From positions 56,736 through 120,735 of the forward strand of contig DASSTO010000009.1 of NCBI GenBank assembly GCA_035707865.1: DNA of 64,000 nt, in the 5' to 3' direction. Shown piece after piece: positions 17,587-55,242 of the stretch; position 1 is the stretch's first letter, and the number at the start of each line of letters is the position of its first letter. Source of the DNA: Longimicrobiaceae bacterium. GTDB lineage: Bacteria > Gemmatimonadota > Gemmatimonadetes > Longimicrobiales > Longimicrobiaceae. The notes beneath the pieces were generated by a model. It saw only the letters and a list, made by a program, of their open reading frames with translations, ran no database searches and was not told the origin of the DNA. The position numbers and the translations under genes were made by a program.

Positions 17587-17651
17587 TCGTATGCGGGATC
17601 GGGAATGCTCGGCCACCGGGGCGGAGAGCTCACGGCCTCGTGGTTTCACCT

Positions 17652-34779: not shown

Positions 34780-34814
34780 GACGGGCCCGTCGCTTCGACT
34801 TCACCCTGCTCTGA

Positions 34815-36278: not shown

Positions 36279-36321
36279 CGCCGCGCCTTCCGCTTTCCAC
36301 CGACTACAGGCGAACAGGCCC

Positions 36322-37389: not shown

Positions 37390-37611
37390 TCGGGGATCTC
37401 TCCCGCACTTGTTGCGTCCCCCCCACACTGGTGGTCCAGCCGCTACGTTCCCGATTTCCCCGCCGGCCGACGCACTGATTCGCTAAACCATATTCTCGAA
37501 AGAAATTACAGAACTGCTCGCCGCTCCCTGCTGCGAGAGCACGCGCGTTGCGTTATCCTGGGCGCCGAAGCAAGGTGTTCTCGCGTTCAATCGGTTCCCG
37601 GAGCAAACCGT

Positions 37612-39266: not shown

Positions 39267-39907
39267 GCACGCGACTGATGAGCTGGGCTCCCGCTTCGGT
39301 GCTCCTCGTGGGCGTGCTCGCGGTCTCCGGCGGCATCCGCGACCAGGTGAGCATGCCGCTGCGCGCTCCGCTCGCCACGAGCATCCCGACGCAGCTGGCG
39401 GGATACAGCGCGCGCGATCTCCCGATTTCGGAGGCGGAGCAGCGAGTCGCCGGCATGGACAGCTACGTGCTTCGCGAGTACACTGCACCGGGTGCCGCGG
39501 CGGCGGCCTTCTCCGTGTACGTGGGCTATTACCAGCGGCAGTACCAGGGCCACACGATCCACTCCCCCAAGAATTGCCTGCCGGGGGCGGGGTGGGAGCC
39601 GCTGGTGGCGGCGGTGCAGACGATCTCCGGTCCTCGCGGCCCGGTGCCGGTCAACCGGTACCTGATCGCCAACGGGCCGGCGCATGCTCTGGTGCTCTAC
39701 TGGTACCAGGGCCGGGGCCGGGTGACCGCGAACGAATACCGGGTCAAGTGGAATCTGCTCCAGGACCAGGCGATCCGCGGCCGGAGCGACGAATCGCTGG
39801 TGCGGGTGGTCGTCCCGGTGACCGGGAGTGAGCAGGAGGCGGACAGCCTGGCGGTGGAGGTGGCACAGCGCCTGCTTCCCGCCGTCGGCCGGGCACTTCC
39901 CAGCTGA
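39263..39907 (+). CDS. EpsI-family exosortase-associated protein
   Basis: 214 aa. ATGA overlap with the exosortase stop. N-terminal anchor, then ...YVGYYQRQYQGHTIHSPKNCLPGAGWE...LVLYWYQGRGRV..NEY..K, the EpsI pattern. Confidence 0.8.
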   Translation: MSTRLMSWAPASVLLVGVLAVSGGIRDQVSMPLRAPLATSIPTQLAGYSARDLPISEAEQRVAGMDSYVLREYTAPGAAAAAFSVYVGYYQRQYQGHTIHSPKNCLPGAGWEPLVAAVQTISGPRGPVPVNRYLIANGPAHALVLYWYQGRGRVTANEYRVKWNLLQDQAIRGRSDESLVRVVVPVTGSEQEADSLAVEVAQRLLPAVGRALPS

Positions 39908-40084
39908 GTGAGGGCCGAGCCATGAGCATGGACCATCGCGACAACCTCAGCCGCGCACCGCCGACTCTGCAGGCCCCATCCCGCAGCCGATGGGAAGGAG
40001 GTGGCGAACCGGAGTTCTGAAAAGCGCCGCCACGCCACTCATCCATGAGAGGCAGTTTCGGGTACCCTCACTCAGGGAAGACAC

Positions 40085-40801
40085 ATGTCAAGAGGCAGAC
40101 TCACATGGTCGTACGCCAAAGGCTTCGCGGCCCTGGCGCTTACGGCCGCTGCGTCGCTCGTCACCGCAGGTGGTGCGAGCGCGCAGATATTCATCATCGG
40201 CAACGCCACGGGCTGCTTCGGCCTGGGCTGTGTGCCTGCCGAGGCGGCGGCGACCGTTGTCAACGGCGTCCCGCTCAGCTACACCAGCCTGGTGCCGACC
40301 GACTTCACCGGCATCACCGCCGGCGGGCAGCTCGCGATCAACACGACGGGCACTTCGACGACCGGTAACTTCGGGAAGATCAGCGTCGGTACCGCACTGT
40401 CGAACAAGACGATCAGCTCGCCGTTCTCGTTGCTGGTCTCCTTCGGTAACCCGCTGACGGCGGACCAGAGCTTCACGGCGCTGATCAGCGGCGTCGTCCA
40501 GTCTCTCGGTACCGGCGGGATCACGCTGGACTTCAACCCGGCGGTCTCCGGGCCGGCGAACATCAACTACACGACGGACTGGCAGTCGTTCTTCGATCCG
40601 CTCAGCGGTAGGAGCGGCATGCTCCGCACCACGGCCAACGGTACGTTCATCCCCTCCGGTGGAGATGGCGAGATCGCGGGCCTGATCGAGGTGGCGAGCG
40701 TGACTCCCGAGCCCGCTTCCATGATGTTGCTCGGAACGGGTCTCTTCGGCCTCATCGGAGTGACGCGTCGCCGTCGCAAGCAGCAGGTCTCTCTCACGTA
40801 G
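40085..40801 (+). CDS. PEP-CTERM sorting-domain protein
   Basis: 238 aa. Signal peptide ...TAGGASAQ. C-terminus SVTPEPASMMLLGTGLFGLIGVTRRRRKQ. Confidence 0.85.
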   Translation: MSRGRLTWSYAKGFAALALTAAASLVTAGGASAQIFIIGNATGCFGLGCVPAEAAATVVNGVPLSYTSLVPTDFTGITAGGQLAINTTGTSTTGNFGKISVGTALSNKTISSPFSLLVSFGNPLTADQSFTALISGVVQSLGTGGITLDFNPAVSGPANINYTTDWQSFFDPLSGRSGMLRTTANGTFIPSGGDGEIAGLIEVASVTPEPASMMLLGTGLFGLIGVTRRRRKQQVSLT

Positions 40802-40911
40802 TCGAGGCGCTTCAGCTGGCTCCGCGGTCGGCCGTGCCGATCGCGGAGCTGGTGGGCGAGGCGCAGGGGGCCGGGCACGCTCGTGCCGCTCGCAACTCAT
40901 TCCGGACATCG

Positions 40912-41472
40912 ATGAACTACAGTTCTCTGGACCGCGGTGGCCTGCGACATCTCGTCGGGCCGCTGTACGCCACGGCGGTGATGCTCGTCGTGATCCCGCT
41001 CTCGGACCTCGGCGGGGCGCTCGGCTGGAAGATGCTCCCGCACGCGATCAACTGGCGAACCGGCGCGGTCGGGCTGTTCAGCGGCACCGTCCTCACGCCG
41101 GCGCTGGGGCTCGTGATCGCGGTCATCACCGCATCCCTCTTCGGCCACCGGTGGGCGCAGCGGGTTCTCACCGTCGTCGTCGGCCTCGCCGCCCTGGTAC
41201 TCTTCGCCATCCTGGCGGGCTTCATCCTCGACGCCATCCAGCTCCGGGCGATGGTGGCGGACGCGACGATGCGCCACTCCTTCACCGCCGCGGTCGTCAA
41301 GGCGACGATCAACCTCGTCGTCGCCGCCGTGACCCTCGCGATCGTCTGCGTCGGCGCCTTCCGGGCGGGGCGGCAGCGCGACCGGGCCGAAGCCGCCACC
41401 AAGCGCCCGGAGCCAGCGCCGACCCCCCTGCTGAGAACGCCACAGCGCCCGCTGCCCGAGAGCGGCGCGTGA
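40912..41472 (+). CDS. hypothetical 4-TM membrane protein
   Basis: 186 aa from ATG 40912. Four clear hydrophobic helices and a basic/Pro-rich tail. Confidence 0.55.
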   Translation: MNYSSLDRGGLRHLVGPLYATAVMLVVIPLSDLGGALGWKMLPHAINWRTGAVGLFSGTVLTPALGLVIAVITASLFGHRWAQRVLTVVVGLAALVLFAILAGFILDAIQLRAMVADATMRHSFTAAVVKATINLVVAAVTLAIVCVGAFRAGRQRDRAEAATKRPEPAPTPLLRTPQRPLPESGA

Positions 41473-41646: not shown

Positions 41647-41675
41647 TTGACGTCGTCCGTGCGCCACAGTATCTT
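41647..41675 (+). promoter_or_regulatory. sigma-70-like promoter TTGACG-N17-TATCTT
   Basis: -35 at 41647-41652 and -10 at 41670-41675. Lies ~300 nt upstream of riboswitch 1. Confidence 0.45.
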
Positions 41676-41981: not shown

Positions 41982-42080
41982 GTTGCTGCTCAGAGCAAAC
42001 CCACCGAAAGGCGGGGACGCAGAGTCAAGGGGCTACAGCGGAGGGTGCTTCTCCGCCACGCTCGCCTGGCCGCCAGCGAC
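41982..42080 (+). ncRNA. c-di-GMP-I (GEMM-I)-like riboswitch aptamer, copy 1
   Basis: GUUGCUG-CUCAGAGCAAACC-CACC GAAA GGCGG-GGACGCAGAGUCAAGGGGCUAC-AGCGGAG(GGUGCUU)CUCCGC-CACGCUCGCCUGGCCGC-CAGCGAC. Matches the Vc2-type core, with a GAAA hairpin and a 7-bp closing helix. See findings. Confidence 0.8.
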
Positions 42081-42082
42081 GT

Positions 42083-42112
42083 ACTCCTTTGCCCCGGTGG
42101 TGGCAAAGGAGT
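42083..42112 (+). promoter_or_regulatory. anti-SD / decoy-SD hairpin (expression platform candidate)
   Basis: ACUCCUUUGCC (42083-42093) pairs perfectly with GGCAAAGGAGU (42102-42112). CUCCUUUG is also complementary to the true RBS CAAAGGAG (42214-42221). Confidence 0.5.
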
Positions 42113-42227
42113 CAGCGCTGGCGGCCTTTTGCGTTCCAGCGCTCCACAATCCACGCAGATCGATCGTCGCGGGAGGCGGGCCAATCAGGGTCCCCTCGAA
42201 TCATCCGTCCTTCCAAAGGAGAGCCTC

Positions 42228-43193
42228 ATGAAGCCTGGGCAGCAGTGGAAAAGGTGGGCCGCAATCCTGACGCTCGGAGTCGTTGCCGGGGCATGCAGCG
42301 ACCAGTCCCCGACCGCAATTCAGACCCCGCTCTCGACGACCGAGGTGTCGGCTTCGACCTCGTCGCTCTCGGTCGCGAGGGTGATCGTCTATCCGTTCTC
42401 CTACACGCTCAAGCTGGGCCAGTACAAGCAGCTGATCGCGGTGCCGAAGGATGCGTCGGGGAATACCCTGAGCCTGGTCGGGCGGAGCGTCTCGTGGAAG
42501 AGCTCGAATCCGGCCGTCGCAACCGTGTACAAGGGCAACGTGAGAGCCAGGGGCGCCGGCACCGTCACGATCACGGCGACGGTGGACGGAGTCAGGGGGA
42601 CGACGAAGATCACCGTGAAGGCGCCGATCAGCGTGGCCTCGGTCACGCTCACGCCCTCCAGCGGGAGCGTCCAGGTGGGCCAGTATCTCCAGCTCCATGC
42701 GACGCCGAAGGACGCCAGCGGAAATCCCGTCAGCGGCCAGACGGTCACCTGGTCCAGCTCGAACCCCGCGATCGCGAAGGTCTACTCGAACGGTCTGGTC
42801 CAGGCCGTGAGCGCGGGCTCGGTGACGATCTCGGCCACCGCGGGCGGAAAGACCGGTCACGCCGCCATCACGGTGACCACGGCGCCGGTCGTGTCGGCGC
42901 CGTCGTCCTCGACCCCTTCCACCTCTGACGTCGCGTCGGTTGTGGTCTACCCGACGATCTACAGCCTCACGGTCGGCCAGTACAAGCAGATGATCGCGGT
43001 GCCGCGGGACGCCTCGGGGCACACCATGAGCCTGGTCGGCCGCACCGTCGTGTGGAGCAGCTCGAACCCGGCCGTGGCGACCGTCAGCGCGTCGGGCCTG
43101 GTGGTCGCCAAGAGCGTGGGCGTGGTCACGATCAAGGCGACGGTGGACGGAACCGTGGGGACGGCGAAGATCACCTCGGCGCTGCCGTACTGA
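42228..43193 (+). CDS. lipoprotein with three Big_2 Ig-like domains
   Basis: 321 aa. AAGGAG lies 6 nt upstream of ATG 42228. Lipobox VVAGAC. Three repeats of (Y/L).(L/V)..GQY.Q(L/M).A.P.DASGN.....V.W.SSNPA(V/I)A.V...G.V.A...G.VTI.AT..G. Confidence 0.85.
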   Translation: MKPGQQWKRWAAILTLGVVAGACSDQSPTAIQTPLSTTEVSASTSSLSVARVIVYPFSYTLKLGQYKQLIAVPKDASGNTLSLVGRSVSWKSSNPAVATVYKGNVRARGAGTVTITATVDGVRGTTKITVKAPISVASVTLTPSSGSVQVGQYLQLHATPKDASGNPVSGQTVTWSSSNPAIAKVYSNGLVQAVSAGSVTISATAGGKTGHAAITVTTAPVVSAPSSSTPSTSDVASVVVYPTIYSLTVGQYKQMIAVPRDASGHTMSLVGRTVVWSSSNPAVATVSASGLVVAKSVGVVTIKATVDGTVGTAKITSALPY

Positions 43194-43217: not shown

Positions 43218-43258
43218 GAAGCACAGGGGAGGGCGCCGGGCGCCCTCCCCTGTGCTTC
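43218..43258 (+). terminator. near-perfect 20-nt inverted repeat (terminator candidate)
   Basis: GAAGCACAGGGGAGGGCGCC (43218-43237) and GGCGCCCTCCCCTGTGCTTC (43239-43258), followed by TT. Starts 25 nt after the Big_2 gene stop. Confidence 0.55.
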
Positions 43259-43380
43259 TTCAGTCCGTGGCACCGGGTTATCTTTCCGGGGCGGCGCTCC
43301 CGTGGTGTGGCGCGGGCGCAACAGCTGCCGTACCGGAAGGGCACTTCGCGGACGTTCGGGCACCGGAGCATACGGGCGAG

Positions 43381-44529
43381 ATGATTTCCCCTGTCGAGCG
43401 ACCCATCCGGGTGGCGTTCTGCATCGACAACATGAATCTGGGCGGGACCGAGCTGAACGCCGTGCGGACGGCGGAGCGGCTGGACCGCTCGCGCTTCGAG
43501 CTGCGCGTCTTCTGCCTGCAGGGCGAGGGTCCGCTGCTGGAGCGCTACGCCGCGGCCGGCGTCCCGGTACATTCCCTGCCGATCCCGAACCTGTACGGCC
43601 CCGGCGCGTGGCGCCAGGGGCGTCGGCTGGCGCGGTTGCTGCGCGAGTACCGGATCGACGTGCTGCACGCGCACGACGTCTACAGCAACGTCTTCGCGGT
43701 GCCGTGGGCGCGACGGGCAGGTGTGGGAACGATCGCGAGCCGGCGCTGGTGGGAGGGTCTGCCGGGCCTGCACTGGAAGCTGGCGAGTGCCGCGGCACAC
43801 CGCGTCGCGCACCGCACCCTGGCCAACGCGCCGGGCGTCGCGCGCCTCCTGGAGCGGGAGGGAATCGCCCGGGACCGGATCGCCGTCGTGCCGAACTTCC
43901 TGGATGAGAGCGCCTTCGAGCTGCTCCCGGAGGCGGAGCGACCGGAGCGACTCGGGGCACTCGGCGCCGACCCGGGGGCGCGCCAGGTGGGAGTGGTGGC
44001 GAACCTGCATCCGGTCAAGGACCACGCGTCCCTCGTGAAGGCGGTCTCCCTGCTGGCGGGGCGCTATCCCGACCTGCAGCTCGTCCTGGTGGGCGACGGG
44101 AGCATGCGCGAGCCGCTCGAGACGCTCGCGGCCGAGCGGGGAATCAGGGAGCGCGTGGTCTTCGCGGGCCGGAGAGCGAACGCGGCCAGCCTGCACCAGC
44201 TCTTCGAGGTCTCGGTTCTCCCCTCCTACAGCGAGGGGTTTCCGAACACGATACTAGAGGCGATGGCGGCGGCGCGCCCGGTGGTGGCCACGACCGTGGG
44301 CGCCATCCCCGACGCGGTGGTGGACGGAGAGACGGGCCTGCTGGTGCCGCCGCGCGATCCCGACCGCCTCGCGGCCGCGCTGGACACGCTCCTGAGCGAT
44401 CCCGCCCGGGCCCGCCGGATGGGAGAGGCGGGTCGGGAGCGCGCCCGGGAGCACTTCTCCGCGCGGGCGGCGCTCTCCAGGCTCGAGGGGCTGTACCGGG
44501 AGCTGGCGGGAGCGCGGGTGGACGGGTGA
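43381..44529 (+). CDS. GT4-family glycosyltransferase
   Basis: 382 aa from ATG 43381. C-terminal EGFPNTILEAMAAARPVVATTVGAIPDAVVDGETGLLV (E-x7-E motif). Confidence 0.85.
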   Translation: MISPVERPIRVAFCIDNMNLGGTELNAVRTAERLDRSRFELRVFCLQGEGPLLERYAAAGVPVHSLPIPNLYGPGAWRQGRRLARLLREYRIDVLHAHDVYSNVFAVPWARRAGVGTIASRRWWEGLPGLHWKLASAAAHRVAHRTLANAPGVARLLEREGIARDRIAVVPNFLDESAFELLPEAERPERLGALGADPGARQVGVVANLHPVKDHASLVKAVSLLAGRYPDLQLVLVGDGSMREPLETLAAERGIRERVVFAGRRANAASLHQLFEVSVLPSYSEGFPNTILEAMAAARPVVATTVGAIPDAVVDGETGLLVPPRDPDRLAAALDTLLSDPARARRMGEAGRERAREHFSARAALSRLEGLYRELAGARVDG

Positions 44530-44578
44530 GCGGGTGAACGCGGGGGCTGCGGTGGCGCCTGCGCCGGGGCCCTGCGCC

Positions 44579-44634
44579 GGCCCTCACCCGGCAGCCTGAG
44601 AGCCGCCACCCTCTCCCGCAAGCGGGCGAGGGGA
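44579..44634 (+). repeat. REP-like intergenic element, copy A
   Basis: GGCCCTCACCCGGC, 18-nt variable segment, CTCTCCCGCAAGCGGGCGAGGGGA. The second block is an imperfect hairpin. Same two blocks as 51167-51225. Confidence 0.7.
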
Positions 44635-44729
44635 AGGGTTTTCGGCGCGCGGGTCGGATGATCGCCTGTATTCAGCTGAGAGCTTCCGGCGTGTTGCGCC
44701 GACATTTCCGAGAACCGGTGTAGTTCACG

Positions 44730-46691
44730 ATGTGTGGAATCTGCGGGCTTTTCTCGTACGGTAGAGTGGCGGAGGACGGTGCGGCGCACGTCGTCCGGAT
44801 GCGCGATGCGATGGAGCACCGCGGGCCGGACGACGCGGGCCTCTACCAGTCCGCCGACCGGCGCGTCGTGCTCGGGCACCGGCGGCTCAGCATCGTCGAC
44901 CTCTCGCCCGCCGGCCACCAGCCGATGAGCAACGAGGACGGAACGGTGTGGATCGCCTTCAACGGGGAGATCTACAACCACGCCGAGCTCCGGCCGGCGC
45001 TCGAGGCGCGCGGGCACCGCTACCGCTCGCGCTCCGACACCGAGACGCTCCTCCACCTCTACGAGGAGCACGGTCCGGAGATGCTCCCGCTCCTGCGGGG
45101 GATGTTCGCGTTCGCGATCTGGGACGCGAACGAGCGCCGGCTCTTCCTGGCCCGCGACCGCATCGGGATCAAGCCGCTCTACTACACCTTCGCGGGCGGG
45201 CGCTTCCTCTTCGGCTCCGAGATCAAGGCGCTGCTCGCCCACCCGGCGGTGGAGCGCGACCTCGATACCGAGGCGCTCTACCATTACCTCTCGTACTACA
45301 CCACGCCTGCTCCCCGCACGATGTTCCGGGGCGTATCGAAGCTCCCGGCGGGGCACTTCATGCTGGTGGACGAACGGGGGGAAGCTACGGTTCGCCGCTG
45401 GTGGGACGCCGCCGACGCGCCCGCCCCCGACTCCACCCTGCTCGCGGACGAGGACACGGTCGCCGGCGAGGTGCAGCGGCTGCTGGGGCAGGCCGTGCAG
45501 GAGCGCCTCATGGCCGACGTGCCGTTCGGCGTCTTCCTCTCGGGCGGGGTGGATTCGAGCGCGATCACGGCGCTGGTGCGCCGCATGCACGACGGCCCCG
45601 TGCGCACCTTCTCCGTGGGCTACGCGGACGCGCCGGAGCACGACGAGCTCGGGCCGGCGCGCCGGGTGGCGCAGCTCCTCGGCACCGACCACCACGAGGT
45701 GGAGATCGACCACGACGACCTCGTCGCCTACGTTCCCGAGCTGATCCACTCGCAGGACGAGCCGCTCGCCGACTGGGTGTGCATCCCGCTTTACTACGTC
45801 TCCAAGCTGGTGCGCGACTCGGGGACGATCGTGGCGCTGGTGGGGGAGGGGAGCGACGAGCAGTTCGCGGGCTACCGGCACTACCTGCGCTACCTGCGGT
45901 TGCAGCGCGGCGCCTGGTCGGCGTACGGGCGGCTGCCGGGCTGGGCGCGCAGGGGCGCGCACCGCCTCGGCGAGCCCGCCCTGCGCCGCGCGAACTTCCC
46001 CCGCGAGATCCGTGAGCTGGTGCGCCGCGCGGCGATGGACGAGCCGCTCTTCCTGAGCGGTGCGGTCGCCGCGTGGGAGACCGACAAGCGGGAGATGATG
46101 TCGGCGCGGATGCGCTCGGGCGAATGGGCCTCCCTCAGCAGCGTGCCCGTAGCCCAGGCGGCGGCCGCTCACTTCCGCTCCCGCCGCCCCGGCGCGGACT
46201 TCCTGGACGGCGTCACCTACCAGGAGCTTCAGCTCCGGCTCCCCGAGCTCCTCCTGATGCGCGTGGACAAGATCACCATGTCCACTTCCATCGAGGCGCG
46301 GGTGCCCTTCCTCGACCACCGGCTGGTGGAGTTCACGGCGCACGTCCCGAGCGCGATGAAGATCCGCGGCGGCCGGACGAAGCACATCCTGAAGCACGCC
46401 GTGCGCGACCTGCTCCCCGCCGACGTGATCGACCGGAAGAAGCAGGGCTTCAGCGCGCCGGTCAAGGAATGGTTCCGCGGTGAGCTGGCGGGTTACGCGC
46501 GCCGCTCCATCCTGGAATCGCGGCTGCGCGAGCGCGACCTGTTCGACTACGACGTGGTGAGCAACATGCTGGAGATGCACCGCACGGGGCGGCGGAACTA
46601 CGACACGCTGCTCTGGAGTCTCGTGAACCTCTCACAGTGGTACGACGGGTGGATCGCCTCTGAGCCCGAGAGGGCGCTGGCGGCGGTATGA
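44730..46691 (+). CDS. asparagine synthase (glutamine-hydrolysing) family amidotransferase, paralogue 1
   Basis: 653 aa. N-terminal nucleophile MCGI, HRGPDD, and PP-loop FLSGGVDSS. Confidence 0.9.
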   Translation: MCGICGLFSYGRVAEDGAAHVVRMRDAMEHRGPDDAGLYQSADRRVVLGHRRLSIVDLSPAGHQPMSNEDGTVWIAFNGEIYNHAELRPALEARGHRYRSRSDTETLLHLYEEHGPEMLPLLRGMFAFAIWDANERRLFLARDRIGIKPLYYTFAGGRFLFGSEIKALLAHPAVERDLDTEALYHYLSYYTTPAPRTMFRGVSKLPAGHFMLVDERGEATVRRWWDAADAPAPDSTLLADEDTVAGEVQRLLGQAVQERLMADVPFGVFLSGGVDSSAITALVRRMHDGPVRTFSVGYADAPEHDELGPARRVAQLLGTDHHEVEIDHDDLVAYVPELIHSQDEPLADWVCIPLYYVSKLVRDSGTIVALVGEGSDEQFAGYRHYLRYLRLQRGAWSAYGRLPGWARRGAHRLGEPALRRANFPREIRELVRRAAMDEPLFLSGAVAAWETDKREMMSARMRSGEWASLSSVPVAQAAAAHFRSRRPGADFLDGVTYQELQLRLPELLLMRVDKITMSTSIEARVPFLDHRLVEFTAHVPSAMKIRGGRTKHILKHAVRDLLPADVIDRKKQGFSAPVKEWFRGELAGYARRSILESRLRERDLFDYDVVSNMLEMHRTGRRNYDTLLWSLVNLSQWYDGWIASEPERALAAV

Positions 46692-47782
46692 TCCGCGTCT
46701 GCGTCGTCGCGCCGAGATACATGACGGGCGGCCAGGCCATCGAGGCCCGGACGATCGTCTCCGGCTTCGCGGGCGACCCCGAGTACCGGCTGGAGATGCA
46801 GCCGATCGACCCGGCGATCCCCGCCTGGCTCGCGCGCCTGCGCGGTGTCCGGACGGTAGCGCGAATGCCGCTCTACTTCTTCGGCCTCGTCCGCAGGATC
46901 CGGCGCGCCGACGTCGTCCACGTCTTCACCGCGGCTTTCTGGCCCTTCCTGCTGACGACGACCCCGGCCATCCTGCTGGGGAGGCTGATGGGCCGGCCCG
47001 TGGTCCTGAACTATCGCGACGGTCGCGCGCCCGACCATCTACCGGCGCGGTGGGTGCGCTGGGTGATCGCCCGCGCGACGGTACTGGTCTTCCCGTCCGG
47101 CTTCCTGCGTGACGTCTTCCGTGGGTACGGCTTCGAGGGCGAGGTGATCTCGAACGTCGTGCACACGGAGCGCTTCCGCTTTCGCGAGCGGGTGCCCCTG
47201 CGGCCGGTCCTGATCTCCAGCCGGCTGCTGGAAGAGCTCTACGCGGTGGAGAACACCATCCGTGCCTTCGCGCGCGTTCGGGAGGTCCACTCCGAGGCCC
47301 GGCTCCTGGTGATCGGAGACGGGGACCGGGCCGAATCGCTGAAGCGGCTCGTGCGGGAGGAGGGGATCGGAGGGGTGGAGTTCCACGGCGCGGTGCCGCA
47401 CGATCAGGTGGCCGACTGGTTCGACCGGGCGGATGTCTTCGTCAACAGCTCGCGCGATGACAACATGCCCCACTCCGTCATCGAGGCGTTCAGCAGCGGG
47501 CTGGCGGTCGTCACGACGAGGGCGGGCGGGATCCCGTACATCGTGGAGCACGGTCGCAACGGCCTGTTGGTGGAGATCGATGACCCGGTGGCCATGGCGG
47601 ATGCCGTGCTGGATCTCCTCCGCGACCCCGCCCGTGCCCGGTCGCTGATCGAGCAGGCGCGGCGCGACTGCGCGGCGCGCTACTCCTGGGACGCGGCGCG
47701 AGAGCATTGGAAGGGCCTCTACCACAGGCTCGCGGGCGAGAGCGGGATCGCCGTGCCTCTCGTGGAGACGGTGCGCGAATGA
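46688..47782 (+). CDS. GT4-family glycosyltransferase
   Basis: 364 aa. ATGA overlap with the AsnB stop. DNMPHSVIEAFSSGLAVVTTRAGGIPYIVEHGRNGLLV. Confidence 0.85.
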   Translation: MIRVCVVAPRYMTGGQAIEARTIVSGFAGDPEYRLEMQPIDPAIPAWLARLRGVRTVARMPLYFFGLVRRIRRADVVHVFTAAFWPFLLTTTPAILLGRLMGRPVVLNYRDGRAPDHLPARWVRWVIARATVLVFPSGFLRDVFRGYGFEGEVISNVVHTERFRFRERVPLRPVLISSRLLEELYAVENTIRAFARVREVHSEARLLVIGDGDRAESLKRLVREEGIGGVEFHGAVPHDQVADWFDRADVFVNSSRDDNMPHSVIEAFSSGLAVVTTRAGGIPYIVEHGRNGLLVEIDDPVAMADAVLDLLRDPARARSLIEQARRDCAARYSWDAAREHWKGLYHRLAGESGIAVPLVETVRE

Positions 47783-49191
47783 GCGACGTCAGCGGCTTCC
47801 ACCGCGGCATGCGCGGCGGTCTGGCACGCCTCCCTAGGAGGGCGGCTCGGCCCTCGGAGGGTGCGTCTCCGTTCCCCTCGTCTCCCGGGCAGAAGACCCG
47901 GTGGGGCGATGCGCTGGTGGCATTCCGCGGCCGTTTCAGGAGCATCCCCTGGACGCTCACGCTCGTGGGCTTCCTGCTCTACGTCTGCGTGATCACCACC
48001 CAGCGGCTGGGGATCGGTGACGTGGGCGTCATCCTCGCCCTCGCGGGGCTGGTATTCCAGCGCGAGCAGCTGCGCTTCCCGCCTTTCCTGATCGTCTTCT
48101 GCGCCTTCCTCACCTGGTGCGCGCTGGGGCTGTTCACCACGCCCTACCCCGACGTGGTTCAGCCGCAACTGGTGGAGTTCTCCAAGCTGGGTCTGATCAT
48201 CCTCGCCGCCGTCAACGCCCTGCGCACGCGAAGCCAGGTCCGCTTCTTCACCATCTTCTGGCTCGCCTGCTACGCGCTCTACCCGGTCCGCGGCACGTTC
48301 GTCAACTACTTCGTCGCCCATTACCGGTTGTTCGGCCGAGCGCTCTGGAGCGGGATCTACGCGAACCCGAACGACCTGGCGGCTCTGACACTGCTTCTAC
48401 TGGGCGTCTGTGCGGGCGTGCTCATCTCGGAGACCGACCGCTGGCTCAAGCGACTCGCCCTGCTCGGCGTGGTCGTGCTGACGCTGTTGATCTTCATGAC
48501 CCAGTCGCGGGGCGCCCTGATCGGCCTCACCGTCTTCGGCCTCTTCGCGCTCGCCGGGCAGCGTATCCGCCTGCGTTCCGTCGCGCTGGTCTGCGCGATG
48601 GCGGTCGTCGTCGCCATGCTCGCGCCCTCGGGCGTCTGGACCCGGCTGGAAGGGCTGACGAAGGCGACGGACACCGAGGATCTCCGGGCGGTCGACCAGG
48701 AGGGCTCGGCGGAGCAGCGCTGGGAGATCTGGCAGACGGCGCTGCAGATCATCGGCGACCACCCGATCTTCGGTGTGGGCTGGGCGGCGTACCCACTGGC
48801 GAACGCGGCGTACGCCCCCATCACCGGCGGGGGCAGCGAGGCACTGGGTGCGCGCGATACGCACAGCACCTATCTGAACGTCACGGCGGAGACGGGCTTC
48901 CCGGGCCTGATGCTCTTCCTGGTGCTCGTTTTCGGCACGATCTACCAGGCGGAGGGCATCCGGCGGCGATGTAAGCGGGACCTTCCCTCGGCCGCGCGAC
49001 AGCTGTACTTCCTCGAGACCGCGATGGTCGGCTATATGACGTCGGGTCTCTTCGGCTCGTACAGCCGGCTCTCCTTCCTGTACCTCTATCTCGCGCTGAT
49101 CTACGTCGTGGCGAAGGCGTGCGAGGAAGATCTCGCGGCCCTGCGTGAAGTCGAGCGGCGGGCCGCCCCCGTGGCAGTGCTGACGAGTTGA
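47779..49191 (+). CDS. O-antigen ligase/polymerase-like (Wzy_C) membrane protein
   Basis: 470 aa from ATG 47779 (ATGA overlap). ~10 TM helices. FMTQSRGALIGL loop motif and a large periplasmic loop with H..YLNV.AE.G. Confidence 0.8.
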   Translation: MSDVSGFHRGMRGGLARLPRRAARPSEGASPFPSSPGQKTRWGDALVAFRGRFRSIPWTLTLVGFLLYVCVITTQRLGIGDVGVILALAGLVFQREQLRFPPFLIVFCAFLTWCALGLFTTPYPDVVQPQLVEFSKLGLIILAAVNALRTRSQVRFFTIFWLACYALYPVRGTFVNYFVAHYRLFGRALWSGIYANPNDLAALTLLLLGVCAGVLISETDRWLKRLALLGVVVLTLLIFMTQSRGALIGLTVFGLFALAGQRIRLRSVALVCAMAVVVAMLAPSGVWTRLEGLTKATDTEDLRAVDQEGSAEQRWEIWQTALQIIGDHPIFGVGWAAYPLANAAYAPITGGGSEALGARDTHSTYLNVTAETGFPGLMLFLVLVFGTIYQAEGIRRRCKRDLPSAARQLYFLETAMVGYMTSGLFGSYSRLSFLYLYLALIYVVAKACEEDLAALREVERRAAPVAVLTS

Positions 49192-49195
49192 GCCG

Positions 49196-51091
49196 ATGTG
49201 TGGAATCGCGGGATTCGTCGGGCGGGAGTGGTCACGCGAGGCGAGCGCGGAGGCGCTGCGGCGCATGTGCGACGCCATCCGCCACCGCGGGCCGGACGAC
49301 GCGGGCTACTTCCTGGCGCCCGGCGTGGCGCTCGGGATGCGCCGCCTCAGCATCATCGACCTGGGCGGGGGGCACCAGCCCATCGGGAACGAGGACGGGC
49401 GTATCCAGATCGTCTTCAACGGCGAGATCTACAACTACCGCGAGCTACGCGAGGGTCTGCTGCGGAGCGGCCACCGCTTCTCCACGCATACCGACACCGA
49501 GACGATCCTGCACCACTACGAGGCGCGGGGCGACCGCGTGGTCGACGACCTGCGCGGGATGTTCGGCTTCGCCATCTGGGACGCGCGCCGGGAGCGGCTC
49601 CTCCTCGCCCGCGACCGTCTGGGGATCAAGCCGCTCTATTACCGGGAGGGCGACGGCGGAGTGGCCTTCGCCTCCGAGCTGAAGTCGCTCCTCGCTCTCC
49701 CGGGCGTGCCGCGCGAGATCGACCCCGCCGCGCTGGCGGACTACCTCGCGCTCGGCTACGTGCCCGAGCCGGCGTGCATCTTCCGCGGCATCCGCAAGCT
49801 CGAGCCGGGGCACACGCTGAGCTGGAGCCGGGACGAGGGCGTGCGCGTCGCGCGCTACTGGTCGCCCTTCCGGCCCGAGGACGCGACGATCGGCGAGGAG
49901 GAGGCGGTGCGCGAGCTGCGGCGGCTCTTCTCCGAGGCCGTCCGCTACCGCCTCATCGCCGACGTGCCGCTCGGCGCCTTCCTCTCCGGCGGGACCGATT
50001 CCTCCGCGGTCGTCGCCGAGATGTCGCGGCAGATGGACCGGCCGGTGCAGACCTTCTCGATCGGCTTTGCCGAGCCGGAGTTCAACGAGGCGCCGCACGC
50101 TGCGGCCGTGGCGAAGGCGCTCGGCTCGGACCACACCGAGCTGATCGTACGCCCCGACGTCGATTCGCTCCTGGAGCAGATCATCGTCGCCTTCGACGAG
50201 CCCTTCGCCGACTCCTCGGCGATTCCCACCTTCCTGGTCTCGCAGCTGGCGAGCAGGAGCGTCAAGGTCGCGCTCTCGGGAGACGGGGGAGACGAGCTCT
50301 TCGGCGGGTACACGCGCTACCTGGACCTGATGCGGCGCGACCACCGCCTCCCCGCTCCCGCGCGCCACGCGCTCTCCGCGCTCGCCCGCCGGCTGCCCCA
50401 CTCCGCCTACGGCCGCAACCGGCTGCTGGAGCTGGCGCGCTCCCCGCACGGGCGCTACGCCGGGATGGTGGCCCATGCGCTCGCCCCGGAGGAGGGCGGG
50501 ATCGCCGCGGCGGGCGTCGCCGCGGCCGGGCACGATCTCGATTCCCTCCTGCGGCGCTGGTTCGACGATACCCCGGAGCGCGACCCCGCCACCCGCGCGA
50601 GCTTCGTCGACCTGCAGAGCTATCTCCCGGGCGACATCCTCACCAAGGTGGACCGGATGAGCATGGCGGTCTCGCTCGAAGCGCGCGTCCCGCTGCTGGA
50701 TCACCCCATCGTGGAGTTCGCCTCCTCGCTGCCCGCCCGTCTGCGCTTCCGGGAGGGAAAGGGCAAGTGGCTCCTGCGCCGGGCCATCGAGGACCTGGTG
50801 CCTCCGCTGGTGCTGCAGAAGCCGAAGCAGGGCTTCGGCGTTCCGCTGCGGCTCTGGTTCCGAAACGAGCTGCGGGGCCGCATCGACGACCTCCTGCGTC
50901 CGGATTCGGCCGTGTACGCGTACGTGGACCGCGCCGCCGTCAGCCGCGTGGTCCGGGAGCACCTCGCGGGGCGGCGCGACCACAGCGCGCAGATCTGGAA
51001 GCTGCTGGTGCTCCACGTCTGGCTGCAGACGCCGTCGGCGGCGCAGGTGGAGAGCAGCCCCCGGTCGACCTTCGCACTGGAGAGGGCCTGA
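49196..51091 (+). CDS. asparagine synthase family amidotransferase, paralogue 2
   Basis: 631 aa. MCGIAG, HRGPDD, FLSGGTDSS. Confidence 0.9.
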   Translation: MCGIAGFVGREWSREASAEALRRMCDAIRHRGPDDAGYFLAPGVALGMRRLSIIDLGGGHQPIGNEDGRIQIVFNGEIYNYRELREGLLRSGHRFSTHTDTETILHHYEARGDRVVDDLRGMFGFAIWDARRERLLLARDRLGIKPLYYREGDGGVAFASELKSLLALPGVPREIDPAALADYLALGYVPEPACIFRGIRKLEPGHTLSWSRDEGVRVARYWSPFRPEDATIGEEEAVRELRRLFSEAVRYRLIADVPLGAFLSGGTDSSAVVAEMSRQMDRPVQTFSIGFAEPEFNEAPHAAAVAKALGSDHTELIVRPDVDSLLEQIIVAFDEPFADSSAIPTFLVSQLASRSVKVALSGDGGDELFGGYTRYLDLMRRDHRLPAPARHALSALARRLPHSAYGRNRLLELARSPHGRYAGMVAHALAPEEGGIAAAGVAAAGHDLDSLLRRWFDDTPERDPATRASFVDLQSYLPGDILTKVDRMSMAVSLEARVPLLDHPIVEFASSLPARLRFREGKGKWLLRRAIEDLVPPLVLQKPKQGFGVPLRLWFRNELRGRIDDLLRPDSAVYAYVDRAAVSRVVREHLAGRRDHSAQIWKLLVLHVWLQTPSAAQVESSPRSTFALERA

Positions 51092-51166
51092 TGTTGTGCC
51101 ACGAGCGCCAGGTGACAAGTGTGCGGAAGCCTGAGCAACGGCGCGGTGCTCGGACGCCGGTGCGCG

Positions 51167-51225
51167 GGCCCTCACCCGGCGCGCCGAGACGCTTTCGGGC
51201 ACTCTCCCGCAAGCGGGCGAGGGGA
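51167..51225 (+). repeat. REP-like intergenic element, copy B
   Basis: GGCCCTCACCCGGC, 21-nt variable segment, CTCTCCCGCAAGCGGGCGAGGGGA. Both conserved blocks are identical to copy A. Confidence 0.7.
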
Positions 51226-51279
51226 CTTTCCGGGACCCGGGTACTGGCGCGAAGCTGCTGGCCCGCAGTCCGCGAAGGC

Positions 51280-51293
51280 GGACTTCCTGTAGC
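51280..51293 (+). promoter_or_regulatory. weak sigma-54-like element
   Basis: CGGACT-TCCTG-TAGC with correct GG-N10-GC spacing but only partial matches to the hexamers. The -12 GC lies ~91 nt upstream of ATG 51384. Confidence 0.25.
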
Positions 51294-51383
51294 TTTTGCA
51301 GCGGTTTCAACCGCCGGGCGAGGGATCGCCGGAGGTGAGGGCCGGCCGCGGCATGCGCCGACCGCTCCGAGGAGGGCGCTGAG

Positions 51384-52745
51384 ATGATCTCCGCTGGTGC
51401 CCTGGCTTTCCGTGCCGCGGAGTGGCTGCGCCGCTCGCGCAGCCGGCAGCTGCTGCGGGAGATCGAGCCCCTGGCACGCCTCTCCCCGGAGGCCGCGCGG
51501 GCGCTCCAGTTCGAGCGGCTCTCGCGGCTGCTCGCGCACGCGGAGGAGCGGGTCCCCTACTACCGGGAGCTCTTCGACTCGATGGGGATCACCAGCCGCG
51601 ACATCCGCTCGGTGGAGGACCTCGCGGGTCTCCCGGTCCTCACGAAGGAGATCGTCCGGGAGCGGGCGCGGGACCTGGTGCGGGAGGATCTCCCTCTCGC
51701 GTCGTTCTCCGTGCACCACAGCGGTGGGTCCACGGGCGTGCCGCTGACCTTCTACCGCGACGCCGAGTACCAGGACGCCTCCGCGGCCGGCACGCTGCGC
51801 AACCTGCGACAGGCGGGGTGGCGGCCGGGGGAGATGGTGGCCTTCTTCTGGGGGTGGAACGAGCGCCTCAACCGGATGTCGCGCTGGGAGTTCGAGTTCC
51901 GGCAGTGGTTGCGGCGCATGTACCAGTTCGACCCCTTCCAGTCGGGCCCGGAGGAGATGGACCGCTGGCTCCGCCGCTGGCGCACGCTGCGCCCGAGTAC
52001 GGCGCTGGGCTACGCCTCCACCATCGCGCGCTTCGCCCGGCACGTGGAGGAGAGCGGCACCCGCCTGCCGCCGCTCAGGGGCGTCTTCACCACCGCGGAG
52101 AAGCTCTATCCCCAGCAGCGGGAGGTCATCTCGCGGGTCTTCTCGTGCCGCGTCTTCGACTGCTACGGGAGCAGCGAGGTGCAGAACATCGCCGCCGAAT
52201 GCCCGCACGGGCGGATGCACGTGAACGCCGACTACGTGGTGCTCGAGGTCGACGGCGACGGAGCGCCCGGAGAACCCGCGCCTTTCCTGCTGACGTCGCT
52301 CTGGAACTACGCGATGCCGTTCATCCGCTATCGCAACGAGGACCGCGGCAGCCTCCTGCCGGGCACGTGCGACTGCGGCAACGGCTTCCCGCTGATGGAC
52401 CTGAGCGTCGCGCGCACCTCGGACAACTTCCCGCTTCCGAACGGGCGCGTGGTGCACGGAGAGTTCTTCACCCACCTGATGTACGGCAGCGAGGGGATCG
52501 CGAGCTTCCAGTTCCACCAGACGGCGACCGATCGCGTCGTGCTCTACGTGGTGCCGGGGCCCGGATCCGCCGCCGCGCGCGAGCGGGCGGTCCGGAGCGC
52601 CGTCGAGCAGGTGCAGTCGCTCGCGCCGGGTCTCGTCGTCGTCGAGGCGAGGACCGTCGACACCATCCCGCTGAGCAGCGCCGGCAAGCACCGCTTCACG
52701 CGCTCCGACGTGGTCACGTCCGCGGCCGGCGAGGGAGTGGTCTGA
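51384..52745 (+). CDS. CapK/PaaK-like adenylate-forming ligase (phenylacetate-CoA ligase family)
   Basis: 453 aa. VPYYRELF...L..LP.L.K; HHSGGSTGVPLTF (AMP-binding P-loop equivalent); architecture typical of CapK-type proteins in capsule/EPS loci. Confidence 0.75.
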   Translation: MISAGALAFRAAEWLRRSRSRQLLREIEPLARLSPEAARALQFERLSRLLAHAEERVPYYRELFDSMGITSRDIRSVEDLAGLPVLTKEIVRERARDLVREDLPLASFSVHHSGGSTGVPLTFYRDAEYQDASAAGTLRNLRQAGWRPGEMVAFFWGWNERLNRMSRWEFEFRQWLRRMYQFDPFQSGPEEMDRWLRRWRTLRPSTALGYASTIARFARHVEESGTRLPPLRGVFTTAEKLYPQQREVISRVFSCRVFDCYGSSEVQNIAAECPHGRMHVNADYVVLEVDGDGAPGEPAPFLLTSLWNYAMPFIRYRNEDRGSLLPGTCDCGNGFPLMDLSVARTSDNFPLPNGRVVHGEFFTHLMYGSEGIASFQFHQTATDRVVLYVVPGPGSAAARERAVRSAVEQVQSLAPGLVVVEARTVDTIPLSSAGKHRFTRSDVVTSAAGEGVV

Positions 52746-52748
52746 CCG

Positions 52749-54623
52749 ATGTGCGGCATCTGCGGTAGCATTCGCCTGTGCGGGCCCACCACGCCGGAGG
52801 ACGATCGGGTCGTCCGCGCCATGATGCGCAGTCTGGAGCATCGGGGCCCGGACGGGCAGGGGATCTGGTCGGACGACGAGGCGGTCCTGGGGCACCTTCG
52901 CCTCGCGATCATCGATCTCGCGGGTGGTTACCAGCCCCTGCTCAACGAGACCGGGCGGATCGGCGTCGTCTTCAACGGCGAGATCTACAACTACCGCGAG
53001 CTGCGCGACCAGCTCCGCGCCGCCGGGCACCGCTTCCGGACGGAGAGCGACACCGAGGTACTGGTGCACGGCTACGAGGAGTGGGGCGACGCGCTGCCGG
53101 AGCGCCTGCGCGGGATGTTCGCCTTCGTGCTCCGGGACGGAGAGCGTCGGCGCACGCTGCTCGTCCGCGATCGCCTGGGAGTGAAGCCGCTCTACTACCT
53201 CCGCTCTCCGGCCGGGGGAACGCTACGCTTCGCGTCCGAGATCAAGGCGCTCTTCGCGGATCCCCACGTCCCGCGGGCGCTCAATGCCGGCCGGCTCTCC
53301 GAGTATTTCGCGTTCCGCAGCATCGTCGGCGAGGAGACGCTCTTCGAGGGCGTCCGCGAGCTGGAGCCGGGGACGCTCATGGTGGTGGAGGACGGCCGCT
53401 GCTCGGTGCGGAGCTACTGGTCGCCGGAATCGGCAGTCGGCGCGACCGCCGCTGACATTGCCGGAGGGGGCCGTGAGCTGCTCGTGGACGCCGTACGGGC
53501 GCGGCTGGTGAGCGACGTCGCGCTCGGGACGATCACCAGCGGCGGACTGGACTCGAGCCTGGTGAGCGCCATCGCGGCGGAGGTCGCCGGAGAGGCCATC
53601 GACACCTTCTGCGTCGGCTTCTCCGATCCCGCCTACGACGAGCGGCCGTTCGCGCGTGCGGTCGCGGAGCGCATCGATTCGCGGCACCACGAGATCGTCG
53701 TCTCGCCCGAGGACCTGGTCCGCGAGCTCGACCGCCTGACCTGGGCGCACGACGAGCCGCTCACGCATCCGAACTCCATCCCCATGCACCTCCTCTTCCG
53801 GGAGGCGAAGGAGCGCCAGCACGTGACGGTGCTGCTCTCGGGGGAGGGCGCGGACGAGGTGTTCGGGGGCTACGAGTGGTACTCGGTCGCTCACCGGCGG
53901 GCGTCGCTCCGGCGCGTTCCCGGGCTGCCGACGCTCGCCCGCTGGCTCCCCGGGCGCCGCTTCGCCACGCTGCGGCGCGTGCTCCACCCCGACTACCTGC
54001 TCGTCTCCAACGCGGTCTCGCGGCCCTCCGAGGTCGCGGCGCTGTGCGCGGGCGACCCCGTGGCCACCCGGCGCGAACGCTGGCCCCGCGACGCCGGCGA
54101 GGAGGGGCTCTTCGTCTACGATCAGCGCACCTACCTCGCCCCGCTGCTCCAGCGCCAGGACCGGATGAGCATGGCCGCGGGGCTGGAGGCGCGCGTGCCC
54201 TTCCTCGACCACGCACTGGTCGAGTGGGCGAACGCGCTCCCCATGCGCACGAAGCTGCCCGGGGGGAGCCGGAAGGCGCTGCTGAAGGCGCTCGCGGCCC
54301 GCTGGCTCCCGGAGAGCATCGTACACCGGAAGAAAGTGGGGTTCGCGATGCCCCTGGGGGCGTGGATGCGCGGGGGCGGCCCGCTCGCGCGGCGGGTGGA
54401 CGAGCTACGCGATCCTCAGGCGTTCGTCCAGGGGGTGGCGCGGGCGGGGGCGGTGGACGCGTTGGTCCGTGAGCACGCCGCGGGCGCCGACCGAACCGAC
54501 CTGCTCTGGTCGCTCCTGGCCCTCGAGCGGTGGGCGAGCGTCTTCCTCGGTCCGGCGCTCCGGACCGAGGAGCTGCCGGGGAGGAACACGGGGCTCGTGC
54601 GGGCCGTCTCCAGTCCCTCCTGA
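52749..54623 (+). CDS. asparagine synthase family amidotransferase, paralogue 3
   Basis: 624 aa. MCGICG, HRGPDG, ITSGGLDSS. Confidence 0.9.
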   Translation: MCGICGSIRLCGPTTPEDDRVVRAMMRSLEHRGPDGQGIWSDDEAVLGHLRLAIIDLAGGYQPLLNETGRIGVVFNGEIYNYRELRDQLRAAGHRFRTESDTEVLVHGYEEWGDALPERLRGMFAFVLRDGERRRTLLVRDRLGVKPLYYLRSPAGGTLRFASEIKALFADPHVPRALNAGRLSEYFAFRSIVGEETLFEGVRELEPGTLMVVEDGRCSVRSYWSPESAVGATAADIAGGGRELLVDAVRARLVSDVALGTITSGGLDSSLVSAIAAEVAGEAIDTFCVGFSDPAYDERPFARAVAERIDSRHHEIVVSPEDLVRELDRLTWAHDEPLTHPNSIPMHLLFREAKERQHVTVLLSGEGADEVFGGYEWYSVAHRRASLRRVPGLPTLARWLPGRRFATLRRVLHPDYLLVSNAVSRPSEVAALCAGDPVATRRERWPRDAGEEGLFVYDQRTYLAPLLQRQDRMSMAAGLEARVPFLDHALVEWANALPMRTKLPGGSRKALLKALAARWLPESIVHRKKVGFAMPLGAWMRGGGPLARRVDELRDPQAFVQGVARAGAVDALVREHAAGADRTDLLWSLLALERWASVFLGPALRTEELPGRNTGLVRAVSSPS

Positions 54624-54719: not shown

Positions 54720-54814
54720 CGCTGTTCAGAGCAAACCCGTCGAAAGGCGGGGACGCAGAGTCACGGGGCTACGGGGGAGAAGCTGCTCTTCCCACGCCCG
54801 CCGGGCCGCCAGCG
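54720..54814 (+). ncRNA. c-di-GMP-I (GEMM-I)-like riboswitch aptamer, copy 2
   Basis: CGCUG-UUCAGAGCAAACC-CGUC GAAA GGCGG-GGACGCAGAGUCACGGGGCUAC-...-CGCCCGCCGGGCCGC-CAGCG. Same core as copy 1, with compensatory stem changes. Confidence 0.8.
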
Positions 54815-55010
54815 ACCTGATCCGCCGCGTTCGCGCGAGATCCAGGTAGCGGCGGCCTTTCCGTTTATATGACCCCTTCGGTTCGCGCGGACGACTACAG
54901 TTTTCGCCGCGCGCTGCCGACACTGTGATGGCGAGGGGGTGTGGAACGCCAGCCCGGGTCTCCCCTGTGGGACTCCGCGCTGTCCTCGACACCTCCTCGA
55001 CAACTCACAG

Positions 55011-55100
55011 CGCTGCTCAGAGCAAAGCCGGCGAAAGCCGGTGGCGCAGAGCCACGGGACTACAGCGGCGCGAGCCGCCATGTCCGCCGGGCCGCCAGCG
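55011..55100 (+). ncRNA. c-di-GMP-I (GEMM-I)-like riboswitch aptamer, copy 3
   Basis: CGCUG-CUCAGAGCAAA-GCCGGC GAAA GCCGGU-GGCGCAGAGCCACGGGACUAC-AGCGGC(GCGA)GCCGC-CAUGUCCGCCGGGCCGC-CAGCG. Confidence 0.75.
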
Positions 55101-55242
55101 ATTCGGCCGATGCAGAGAGACCCTCTCTCCCATCGGCAGGACCTGGCGGCTTTTTCGTGCCCCTGGTCCTCAGGCATTCACGGCCGCGGACCCCGACAAC
55201 TGGTCGGGGTCGGGCCAAAGCAATAACTTGAGGAGGAAGCTG

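Follow-up and report, generated by a model that had tools for sequence, protein, structure and literature searches.

GEMM-I-fold aptamers with an A20/G48-C90 pocket in the leaders of lipoprotein genes of a Longimicrobiaceae bacterium and other bacteria

The closest described relatives of the RNA reported here share the GEMM-I fold, which Rfam collects as family RF01051 (cyclic di-GMP-I, c-di-GMP-I). Positions in these RNAs are named after the Vc2 aptamer, where one guanine of c-di-GMP is recognised at its Hoogsteen face by G20 and the other is paired to C92, with A47 intercalated between the two (PMC6140456). A change of G20 to A is the hallmark of GEMM-I RNAs that bind 3'3'-cGAMP (cyclic GMP-AMP) or are bispecific (PMC6140456). 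The artificial Vc2 G20A mutant binds c-di-GMP at 53 nM, via a protonated adenine, and cGAMP at 120 nM, and the Geobacter RNAs Gs1761 and Gm0970 are more than 1000-fold selective for cGAMP. RF01051 as curated includes A20 RNAs, for example that of PDB entry 4YAZ. Here we analyse a 64,000-nucleotide stretch of a Longimicrobiaceae bacterium (contig DASSTO010000009.1, positions 56,736 to 120,735; G+C content 70.7%), referred to below as the window. A Big_2 lipoprotein gene of the window has in its 5' leader, at 41982-42081, a GEMM-I-fold (RF01051) cyclic-dinucleotide aptamer whose pocket differs from that of Vc2 at two positions.

Scanning the window with cmscan against all 4227 Rfam families at their gathering thresholds produced exactly three matches, all to RF01051, all on the forward strand and each covering the model from position 1 to 87 of 87 (Table 1). 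The score of every copy exceeds the RF01051 gathering score of 35, and RF01051 is the best-scoring model within its clan for these RNAs; neither c-di-GMP-II nor any other Rfam family gave a match in this whole-window scan. Copies 2 and 3 stand in tandem, with a start-to-start distance of 291 nucleotides (nt). A preliminary description, made from the letters alone, had recognised a c-di-GMP-I aptamer at 41982-42080 and two more copies in the window. The letters it quoted agree with the sequence, the additional copies coincide with the second and third RF01051 match, and the proposed family, fold, strand and leader position are supported by cmscan, by covariation and by the Pfam assignment of the downstream gene. 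Copy 1 adopts a three-way junction with a GAAA-capped helix P2 and a helix P3 that carries a distal hairpin and a receptor-like CUAC/CACG internal loop. Its proposed 7-bp closing helix P1, formed by 41982-41988 (GUUGCUG) and 42074-42080 (CAGCGAC), is present with one G-U pair; across the family a 5-bp core is conserved, showing CG-to-UA and GC-to-UA exchanges, whereas the outer two pairs are specific to copy 1. The compensatory stem changes between copies that had been described are visible for P2 and distal P3 in the cmscan alignments, except for one A.C mismatch in the P2 stem of copy 1.

Relatives were collected from one genome per GTDB species with the degenerate core pattern AGRGCAAA-N6-GAAA-N6-GNCGCAGAG, yielding at least 119 loci. 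Among the matches listed, 70 belong to Gemmatimonadota (Gemmatimonadales and Longimicrobiales), 22 to Nitrospirota, seven to Deltaproteobacteria/Desulfuromonadales, five to Acidobacteriota and three to Eisenbacteria. Eighty aptamers were aligned with MAFFT, blind to structure, and base pairs were counted for one named structure. Paired cells amounted to 87.6%; shuffling the columns gave 76.8%, and sliding the partners by 1-3 columns gave 25-47%. Changes on both sides were found in 22 of the 31 base pairs, a level reached by none of 500 shuffles, with P2, distal P3 and lower P3 as the covarying helices. In this alignment conservation extends to the GAAA loop and to the CUA / CA(C/U)G internal loop, and the A47 and C92 columns are invariant, being kept also in 114-116 of 116 model hits. 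These results mark the element as a real RNA structure under selection, as opposed to a match by chance. Its orientation and its position 5' of lipoprotein genes are alike in about 100 loci.

At the position equivalent to Vc2 G20 (model position 11), directly 5' of the G-C/C-G pairs that close P2, all three window copies carry an A, reading cAGAGCAAA where the consensus reads aGGCAAA in the cmscan alignments. The first pair of P3 is likewise altered in all three, being G48-C90 instead of A48-U90. The equivalents of A47 and C92 are present in copy 1 (Table 1). Recognition of c-di-GMP with high affinity through G20, as in Vc2, cannot occur in RNAs of this sequence. The preliminary label of a c-di-GMP riboswitch is hence retained as a statement about the RF01051 family; c-di-GMP as the functional ligand is not established by it, because position 20 is A. 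As for the second change, position 48 is among the ligand-contacting nucleotides of 3IRW, and A42 of 4YAZ touches the ligand. In the crystal structure of Gs1761, P3 opens with A42-U73, the equivalent of A48-U90 (PMC6274999), and for this reason G48-C90 looks like a compensated first P3 pair next to the pocket rather than a new contact. Direct pairing between positions 20 and 48, by an isosteric swap of G.A to A.G, was also considered and rejected, as the position-48 equivalent of Gs1761 pairs with the position-90 equivalent.

The two pocket changes go together. Our genome scan had permitted A or G at position 20 with G fixed at position 48, and position 20 was A in 128 of the 128 matches listed. 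A metagenome scan permitting A or G at both positions gave the 20/48 combinations G/A 89 times, A/G 32 times, A/A four times and G/G never. A covariance model built from the 80-aptamer alignment and searched against about 1.4 Mb of fetched loci (denoted below by L numbers) returned 237 hits, in which positions 20/48/90 were A/G/C in 149, G/A/U in 57 and G/A/C in 18, with no case of G20 together with G48. A naive Fisher test on the pooled 237 hits, uncorrected for shared ancestry, gives p ~1e-58. By these counts the A20/G48-C90 aptamers are a discrete subclass, found mainly in Gemmatimonadota and Nitrospirota; in the literature searched we found no description of GEMM-I RNAs from either phylum.

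Compared with Vc2 (PDB 3IRW), the window RNAs have the same fold and share GCAAA, the GAAA-capped P2, GACGCA, a CUA..AUG-type P3 receptor and the GCC 3' junction. As in c-di-GMP-I RNAs generally, A47 and C92 are kept, the score lies above the gathering threshold and the RNAs sit in leaders of surface or adhesion genes. They differ from Vc2 in having A20 instead of G20, G48-C90 instead of A48-U90, and CUCAGA in the joining region J1/2 instead of the (A)AAGG/ACAGG type. Of the features of GEMM-I, score, fold, A47 and C92 are thus found and G20 is absent. With the Geobacter GEMM-Ib RNAs (Gs1761, PDB 4YAZ, and Gm0970, upstream of pilM) they have in common the equivalents of A20, A47 and C92, which are the nucleotides of the GEMM-Ib definition (PMC6140456), and a predicted terminator that overlaps the 3' strand of the aptamer. 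The GEMM-Ib sequence type is a different matter. Geobacter RNAs have J1/2 ACAAUA, P1a C-G/U.G, a GCGA loop and A48-U90, and the published pilM template reads CGACAAUA-CU-AAA-CCAUCC-GCGA-GGGUGG-GAC-GG-AAAG...GCCGGGAUGCC; the window RNAs have CUCAGA, GC/GC, GAAA and G48-C90 at these places. When J1/2, P1a and the 48-90 pair are compared, A20 is the only feature shared with the pilM type, so the window RNAs belong neither to canonical c-di-GMP-I nor to the Geobacter sequence type. The host phyla of the type, Gemmatimonadota and Nitrospirota, also set it apart from the Geobacter RNAs. No Hypr GGDEF protein was seen locally. The nearest analogues of the pocket by sequence are the bispecific A20 RNAs, namely Vc2 G20A and Cbe 1-2 of Clostridium beijerinckii, which combine a canonical core with A20. 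Vc2 G20A, however, is an artificial one-nucleotide mutant that keeps A48, Cbe 1-2 comes from a Firmicute, and neither of them is known to form a discrete subclass that shares a leader with G20 aptamers.

The element extends beyond the aptamer. In all three full leaders ViennaRNA predicts a long hairpin whose 5' arm is the 3' strand of the aptamer itself, followed by a U-tract (the tail of copy 2 being UUUCCGUUU). The terminator segment of copy 1 has a predicted energy of -52.1 kcal/mol and dominates the minimum-energy structure of the full leader; its 5' arm is the 3' strand of aptamer P3 and P1, including the ligand-pairing C 42073, which pairs with 42121 in the predicted hairpin. Aligning the three leaders restricts conservation to the aptamer and a GGCGGC(C/U)UUU arm, the inner hairpins and flanks being unrelated. 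Within 45 nt downstream, GGCGGY with a T-rich tail occurs in 73 of 109 relatives, against 4 of 109 in an upstream control of equal length. What had been described as a riboswitch aptamer is accordingly an aptamer within a larger element and, because the competing terminator is included, a complete ON switch by design. The mechanism to which we commit is this GEMM-I fold in a transcriptional ON design driven by a guanine-containing 3',3' cyclic dinucleotide; fold and ON design we consider very probable, the polarity being read from the predicted folds and their conservation across the family. The large or branched loops of the predicted terminators, which a simple terminator scan did not pick up, count against it.

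In the proposed mechanism, GGCCGCCAGCG (42068-42078) would pair with CGCUGGCGGCC (42116-42126) when ligand is absent, sequestering the ligand-pairing C 42073 together with the 3' sides of P3 and P1. The resulting terminator hairpin and its UUUU would halt transcription before the lipoprotein gene. Ligand bound in the junction would hold P1 and P3 so that the terminator could not nucleate, and RNA polymerase would continue into the lipoprotein gene and probably also into the polysaccharide genes behind it. Aptamer and terminator being mutually exclusive, ligand binding should prevent termination, as expected of an ON switch. Copies 2 and 3 would represent two complete switches in series, and since read-through would require occupancy of both, a sharper response should follow. 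The experimentally dissected cGAMP riboswitch of G. metallireducens pilM has the same ON design, its terminator sequestering C75, the C92 equivalent (PMC9262584). The Geobacter GEMM-Ib RNAs thus resemble the predicted folds of the window in forming the terminator from the aptamer 3' strand and in sequestering the ligand-pairing C; tandem copies and surface-protein, pilM and polysaccharide targets are further similarities.

Canonical G20/A48 aptamers were found by the covariance-model search in the same Gemmatimonadales loci as the A20 type, forming at least 12 heterotypic tandems. Nine loci (L068, L029, L097, L134, L169, L179, L110, L158 and L104) have an A20 unit, complete with its terminator, in first place and a G20 aptamer 60-100 nt behind it. 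In eight of them the 3' flank of the G20 aptamer (GCCGAACCUC..GGAGGGG..AUG) leads straight into the Shine-Dalgarno sequence and the start codon of a lipoprotein gene; the ninth, L179, is cut off by the contig edge. The reverse order, with the G20 type first, occurs in three loci (L047, L172 and L157). The Shine-Dalgarno sequence of the G20 unit can pair both in an aptamer-closed fold and in a local-hairpin fold, and folding does not fix its polarity. That a single genome, and even a single leader, maintains both pocket types separately argues for different roles, be it a different ligand or a different threshold, and the mixed tandems may act as two-input or two-threshold gates. Copies 2 and 3 resemble the tandem c-di-GMP-I aptamers of Bacillota and the tandem GEMM-Ib aptamers of Geobacter, being two aptamer-plus-terminator units before one gene. 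Unlike these documented tandems, the related loci mix an A20-type unit with a G20 aptamer at the ribosome-binding site, an arrangement for which we found no description in the literature searched. We also observed that one 8-kb stretch of a Gemmatimonadales metagenome-assembled genome (MAG; L104, 311-7420) carries six aptamers, five of the A20 type and one of the G20 type, and that a lipoprotein gene follows each of at least three of these, which looks like an array of riboswitch-controlled surface-protein genes.

Table 1. Riboswitch elements, target genes and polysaccharide genes, given in window positions unless a locus is named
Feature	Position	Strand	Basis and details
Aptamer copy 1, GEMM-I fold	41982..42081	+	RF01051 51.4 bits; own covariance model 91.8 bits; covariation
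Aptamer copy 1, RF01051 match	41984-42077	+	51.4 bits, E 3.9e-07
Pocket bases of copy 1	A20-equivalent 41994; A47-equivalent 42021; G48 42022; C90 42071; C92-equivalent 42073
Terminator of copy 1 (predicted)	42068..42135	+	ViennaRNA; stem 42068-42126 (GGCCGCCAGCG...CGCUGGCGGCC, with inner hairpin), then UUUUGCGUU
Shine-Dalgarno-like AAGGAGAG and ATG of Big_2 lipoprotein gene	42216..42230	+	Read from sequence
Big_2 lipoprotein, 321 amino acids	42228..43193	+	Pfam PF02368, E 7e-33; three Big_2 domains; lipobox ..VVAGAC
Polysaccharide genes, probably co-transcribed	43252..54623	+	Pfam, NCBIfam
Three paralogous AsnB-like amidotransferases	44730-46691, 49184-51091, 52749-54623	+	
Aptamer copy 2, A20/G48-C90 type	54720-54813	+	RF01051 55.4 bits, E 4.2e-08
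Terminator of copy 2 (predicted)	54803..54869	+	ViennaRNA fold; stem 54803-54858, then UUUCCGUUUAU
Aptamer copy 3, A20/G48-C90 type	55011-55099	+	RF01051 55.8 bits, E 3.3e-08
Terminator of copy 3 (predicted)	55090..55156	+	ViennaRNA fold; stem 55090-55151, then UUUUU
Lipoprotein behind tandem copies 2 and 3, 625 amino acids	55243..57120	+	..LLLLSAC; no firm Pfam family
Mixed tandem examples	L068 5344-5650; L029 4667-4945		

The adhesin-like lipoprotein named as the target in the preliminary description was borne out by its lipobox and its three Big_2 domains (Table 1). The sequence AAGGAGAG lies 4 nt 5' of its start codon, which begins at 42228 and not at 42229. An identical protein in the same context is encoded on a Logan contig (SRR25158513), and proteins behind riboswitches in Gemmatimonadales MAGs are 47-50% identical to it. 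Taken with the G+C content of 70.7%, this identity points to a likely Gemmatimonadota origin of the window. An adhesin-like target is a family-wide association: the first open reading frame (ORF) downstream of 102 aptamers encodes Big_2 domains in 49 cases, Big_1 in 32, fn3 in 26 and PilM in two. Homologues of the 625-residue lipoprotein behind copies 2 and 3 (37-43% identity) likewise lie behind riboswitches in L031 and L028. In the two pilM cases the same A20/G48-C90 aptamer precedes the gene (PilM_2, E 2e-73; L102 at about 1-1024 on the reverse strand, and L113 at 3879-4931), in parallel to G. metallireducens pilM. A separate observation concerns the lipoproteins themselves: in about 25 of 106 loci (for example L008, L034, L061, L101 and L120) the riboswitch-linked Gemmatimonadales proteins carry an N-terminal M(P/T)F.(F/H)KL(S/A).RLA motif before the hydrophobic segment and the lipobox Cys. 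Neither window lipoprotein has this exact motif.

The polysaccharide genes behind the Big_2 gene (43252-54623) comprise a GT4 gene, three AsnB-like amidotransferases, a glycosyltransferase, a Wzy-like polymerase and a CoA-ligase-like gene; the one amidotransferase that was scanned (44730-46691) is nearest to TIGR03108, the XrtA/PEP-CTERM system amidotransferase, and an exact-match look-up of the AsnB-like protein found none. As these genes lie on the same strand and a simple scan found no terminator-like site on the forward strand across them, a single operon with the lipoprotein gene is plausible. Upstream, at 28863-41472, are a Wza-like exporter, a Wzz/tyrosine kinase, a sigma-54 response regulator and kinase, a priming sugar transferase, an exosortase, EpsI and a PEP-CTERM protein, and the two segments together are a complete exosortase/PEP-CTERM exopolysaccharide locus. 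A promoter scan near the aptamer copies gave no convincing promoter. A promoter-like TTGACG-17-TATCTT at 41647-41675 is a weak lead, as is TTGACA-16 nt-TAGGTT at 54669-54696, about 25 nt 5' of aptamer 2, which was seen by eye and failed the consensus scan; the stretch from aptamer 2 to aptamer 3 showed no site like the latter, in agreement with a single transcript. Elsewhere in the window, 2912-6337 (forward strand) encodes a large surface-type protein of 1141 residues with three Big_2 domains and an RCC1-like beta-propeller, with no riboswitch detected upstream, and a 556-residue ORF at 11231-12901 (reverse strand) has as its sole Pfam match a DnaA N-terminal domain in an unusual, C-terminal placement (residues 477-537).

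Which dinucleotide the A20/G48-C90 pocket reads can be weighed from several sides. C92 should pair with a guanine of the ligand, and A20 stands in place of the G by which the second guanine of c-di-GMP is read. A pocket of A20, A47 and C92 with G48-C90 favours a reading in which the RNA is no high-affinity sensor of c-di-GMP only and accepts 3'3'-cGAMP, either selectively or together with c-di-GMP; this we think probable, if by no means secure, and the position of the subtype before pilM, shared with the Geobacter cGAMP riboswitch, was counted in its favour, as were the constancy of A20, the discreteness of the type and its occurrence beside G20 aptamers in the same leaders. A preference for cGAMP would be the leading, still tentative, form of this reading, and true bispecificity an unlikely one. 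A number of observations weigh against cGAMP. The natural A20 RNA Cbe 1-2 binds c-di-GMP at 30 nM and cGAMP at 463 nM, so A20, though necessary, is insufficient for cGAMP selectivity. Outside A20 and G48-C90 the core is nearer to canonical GEMM-I than to Geobacter GEMM-Ib (GC/GC P1a, GCAAA, GAAA). Adhesins and exopolysaccharide are classic outputs of c-di-GMP. The locus has two proteins predicted to be c-di-GMP enzymes, a PAS-GGDEF protein with an RxxD I-site (22545-23471) and a GAF-PAS-GGDEF-EAL protein (14584-18249), both on the reverse strand and 19-27 kb upstream of riboswitch 1. Hypr GGDEFs, which make cGAMP, have Ser (GacA position 348) where canonical GGDEFs have Asp (PMC6456294); both window proteins have the canonical Asp (NDxxGHxxGD), as do all 11 GGDEF domains of the window and the fetched loci together (64 kb of the host genome), and no cGAMP synthase was seen within the 64-kb window. 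Finally, the coupling of A20 with G48-C90 could stem from a single ancestry rather than from function. Much of this would suit a plain c-di-GMP riboswitch, in which A20 merely lowers the affinity, as in Vc2 G20A with its retained c-di-GMP binding, and thereby sets a higher threshold than in the G20 aptamers of the same organisms, with high c-di-GMP switching the adhesin and polysaccharide genes on. Membership of RF01051 agrees with that account, and two affinity classes in tandem could set two thresholds. It is difficult to reconcile with the invariance of A20 in all 149 A/G/C-type hits beside G20 aptamers that are retained in the very same genomes, even in shared leaders, and with the lack of intermediates combining G20 and G48 (0 of 237); affinity could be tuned by many substitutions, and two strict pocket types would not be expected. 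We regard it as rather unlikely, yet as a serious competitor to the cGAMP-accepting reading.

A discrete and widespread subclass whose ligand shell departs at two positions from either of the characterised classes would also be compatible with a GEMM-I-fold variant for another ligand, such as c-di-AMP, another mixed cyclic dinucleotide or a linear dinucleotide, comparable to the Rfam families c-di-GMP-I-GGC and c-di-GMP-I-UAU. The invariant C92 and A47, however, fit an intercalated dinucleotide with a guanine at the beta site, G48-C90 resembles a compensated pair of P3, and RF01051 scores highest within the clan, making such a ligand improbable. That the RNA is no functional riboswitch at all, whether it arose as a match by chance, as a dispersed DNA repeat or as a decayed relic, we consider very improbable. 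A repeat could be suspected from the presence of three similar copies in the window, and simple scans gave neither a terminator nor a clear promoter nearby. All three riboswitch terminators were missed in this way because the scan admitted loops of only 3-8 nt and the riboswitch stems enclose inner hairpins, making the loops large or branched; the ViennaRNA folds were used instead. The E-values against all of Rfam are 1e-7 to 1e-8, compensatory changes run through every variable helix, and orientation and position before lipoprotein genes are the same in about 100 loci, with the proteins downstream of the window copies only about 20% identical to each other. A repeat or mobile element was rejected, as similarity between the copies ends at the aptamer and the terminator arm. 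Going beyond the cGAMP-accepting reading of the window RNAs, we put forward tentatively that A20/G48-C90 RNAs may be a separate GEMM-I specificity class, distinct from c-di-GMP-I and from Geobacter GEMM-Ib, that senses 3'3'-cGAMP or another dinucleotide other than c-di-GMP. In Gemmatimonadota, Nitrospirota, Acidobacteriota and relatives it would turn on Ig-like/Fn3 surface lipoproteins, pilM and exosortase-linked polysaccharide genes, and in many leaders it would combine with a canonical c-di-GMP aptamer at the ribosome-binding site into a gate with two inputs.

Family and mechanism are ordinary here and the RNA is detectable with Rfam; what is new is the genomic context, an adhesin-like lipoprotein with a probable polysaccharide operon in an exosortase/PEP-CTERM locus. 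It provides a concrete regulatory link by which cyclic-dinucleotide signalling is connected with the production of surface and matrix material in a soil phylum that has been little studied. The main interest lies in the pocket, a discrete and widespread A20/G48-C90 subclass that occurs beside canonical G20 aptamers, even in one leader, and could be a new specificity class. If these RNAs read cGAMP, the phyla that carry them would employ a second dinucleotide signal, one linked until now chiefly to Geobacter. Riboswitch-mediated cGAMP signalling would then extend well beyond that genus, with the mixed tandems serving as natural logic gates for two signals.

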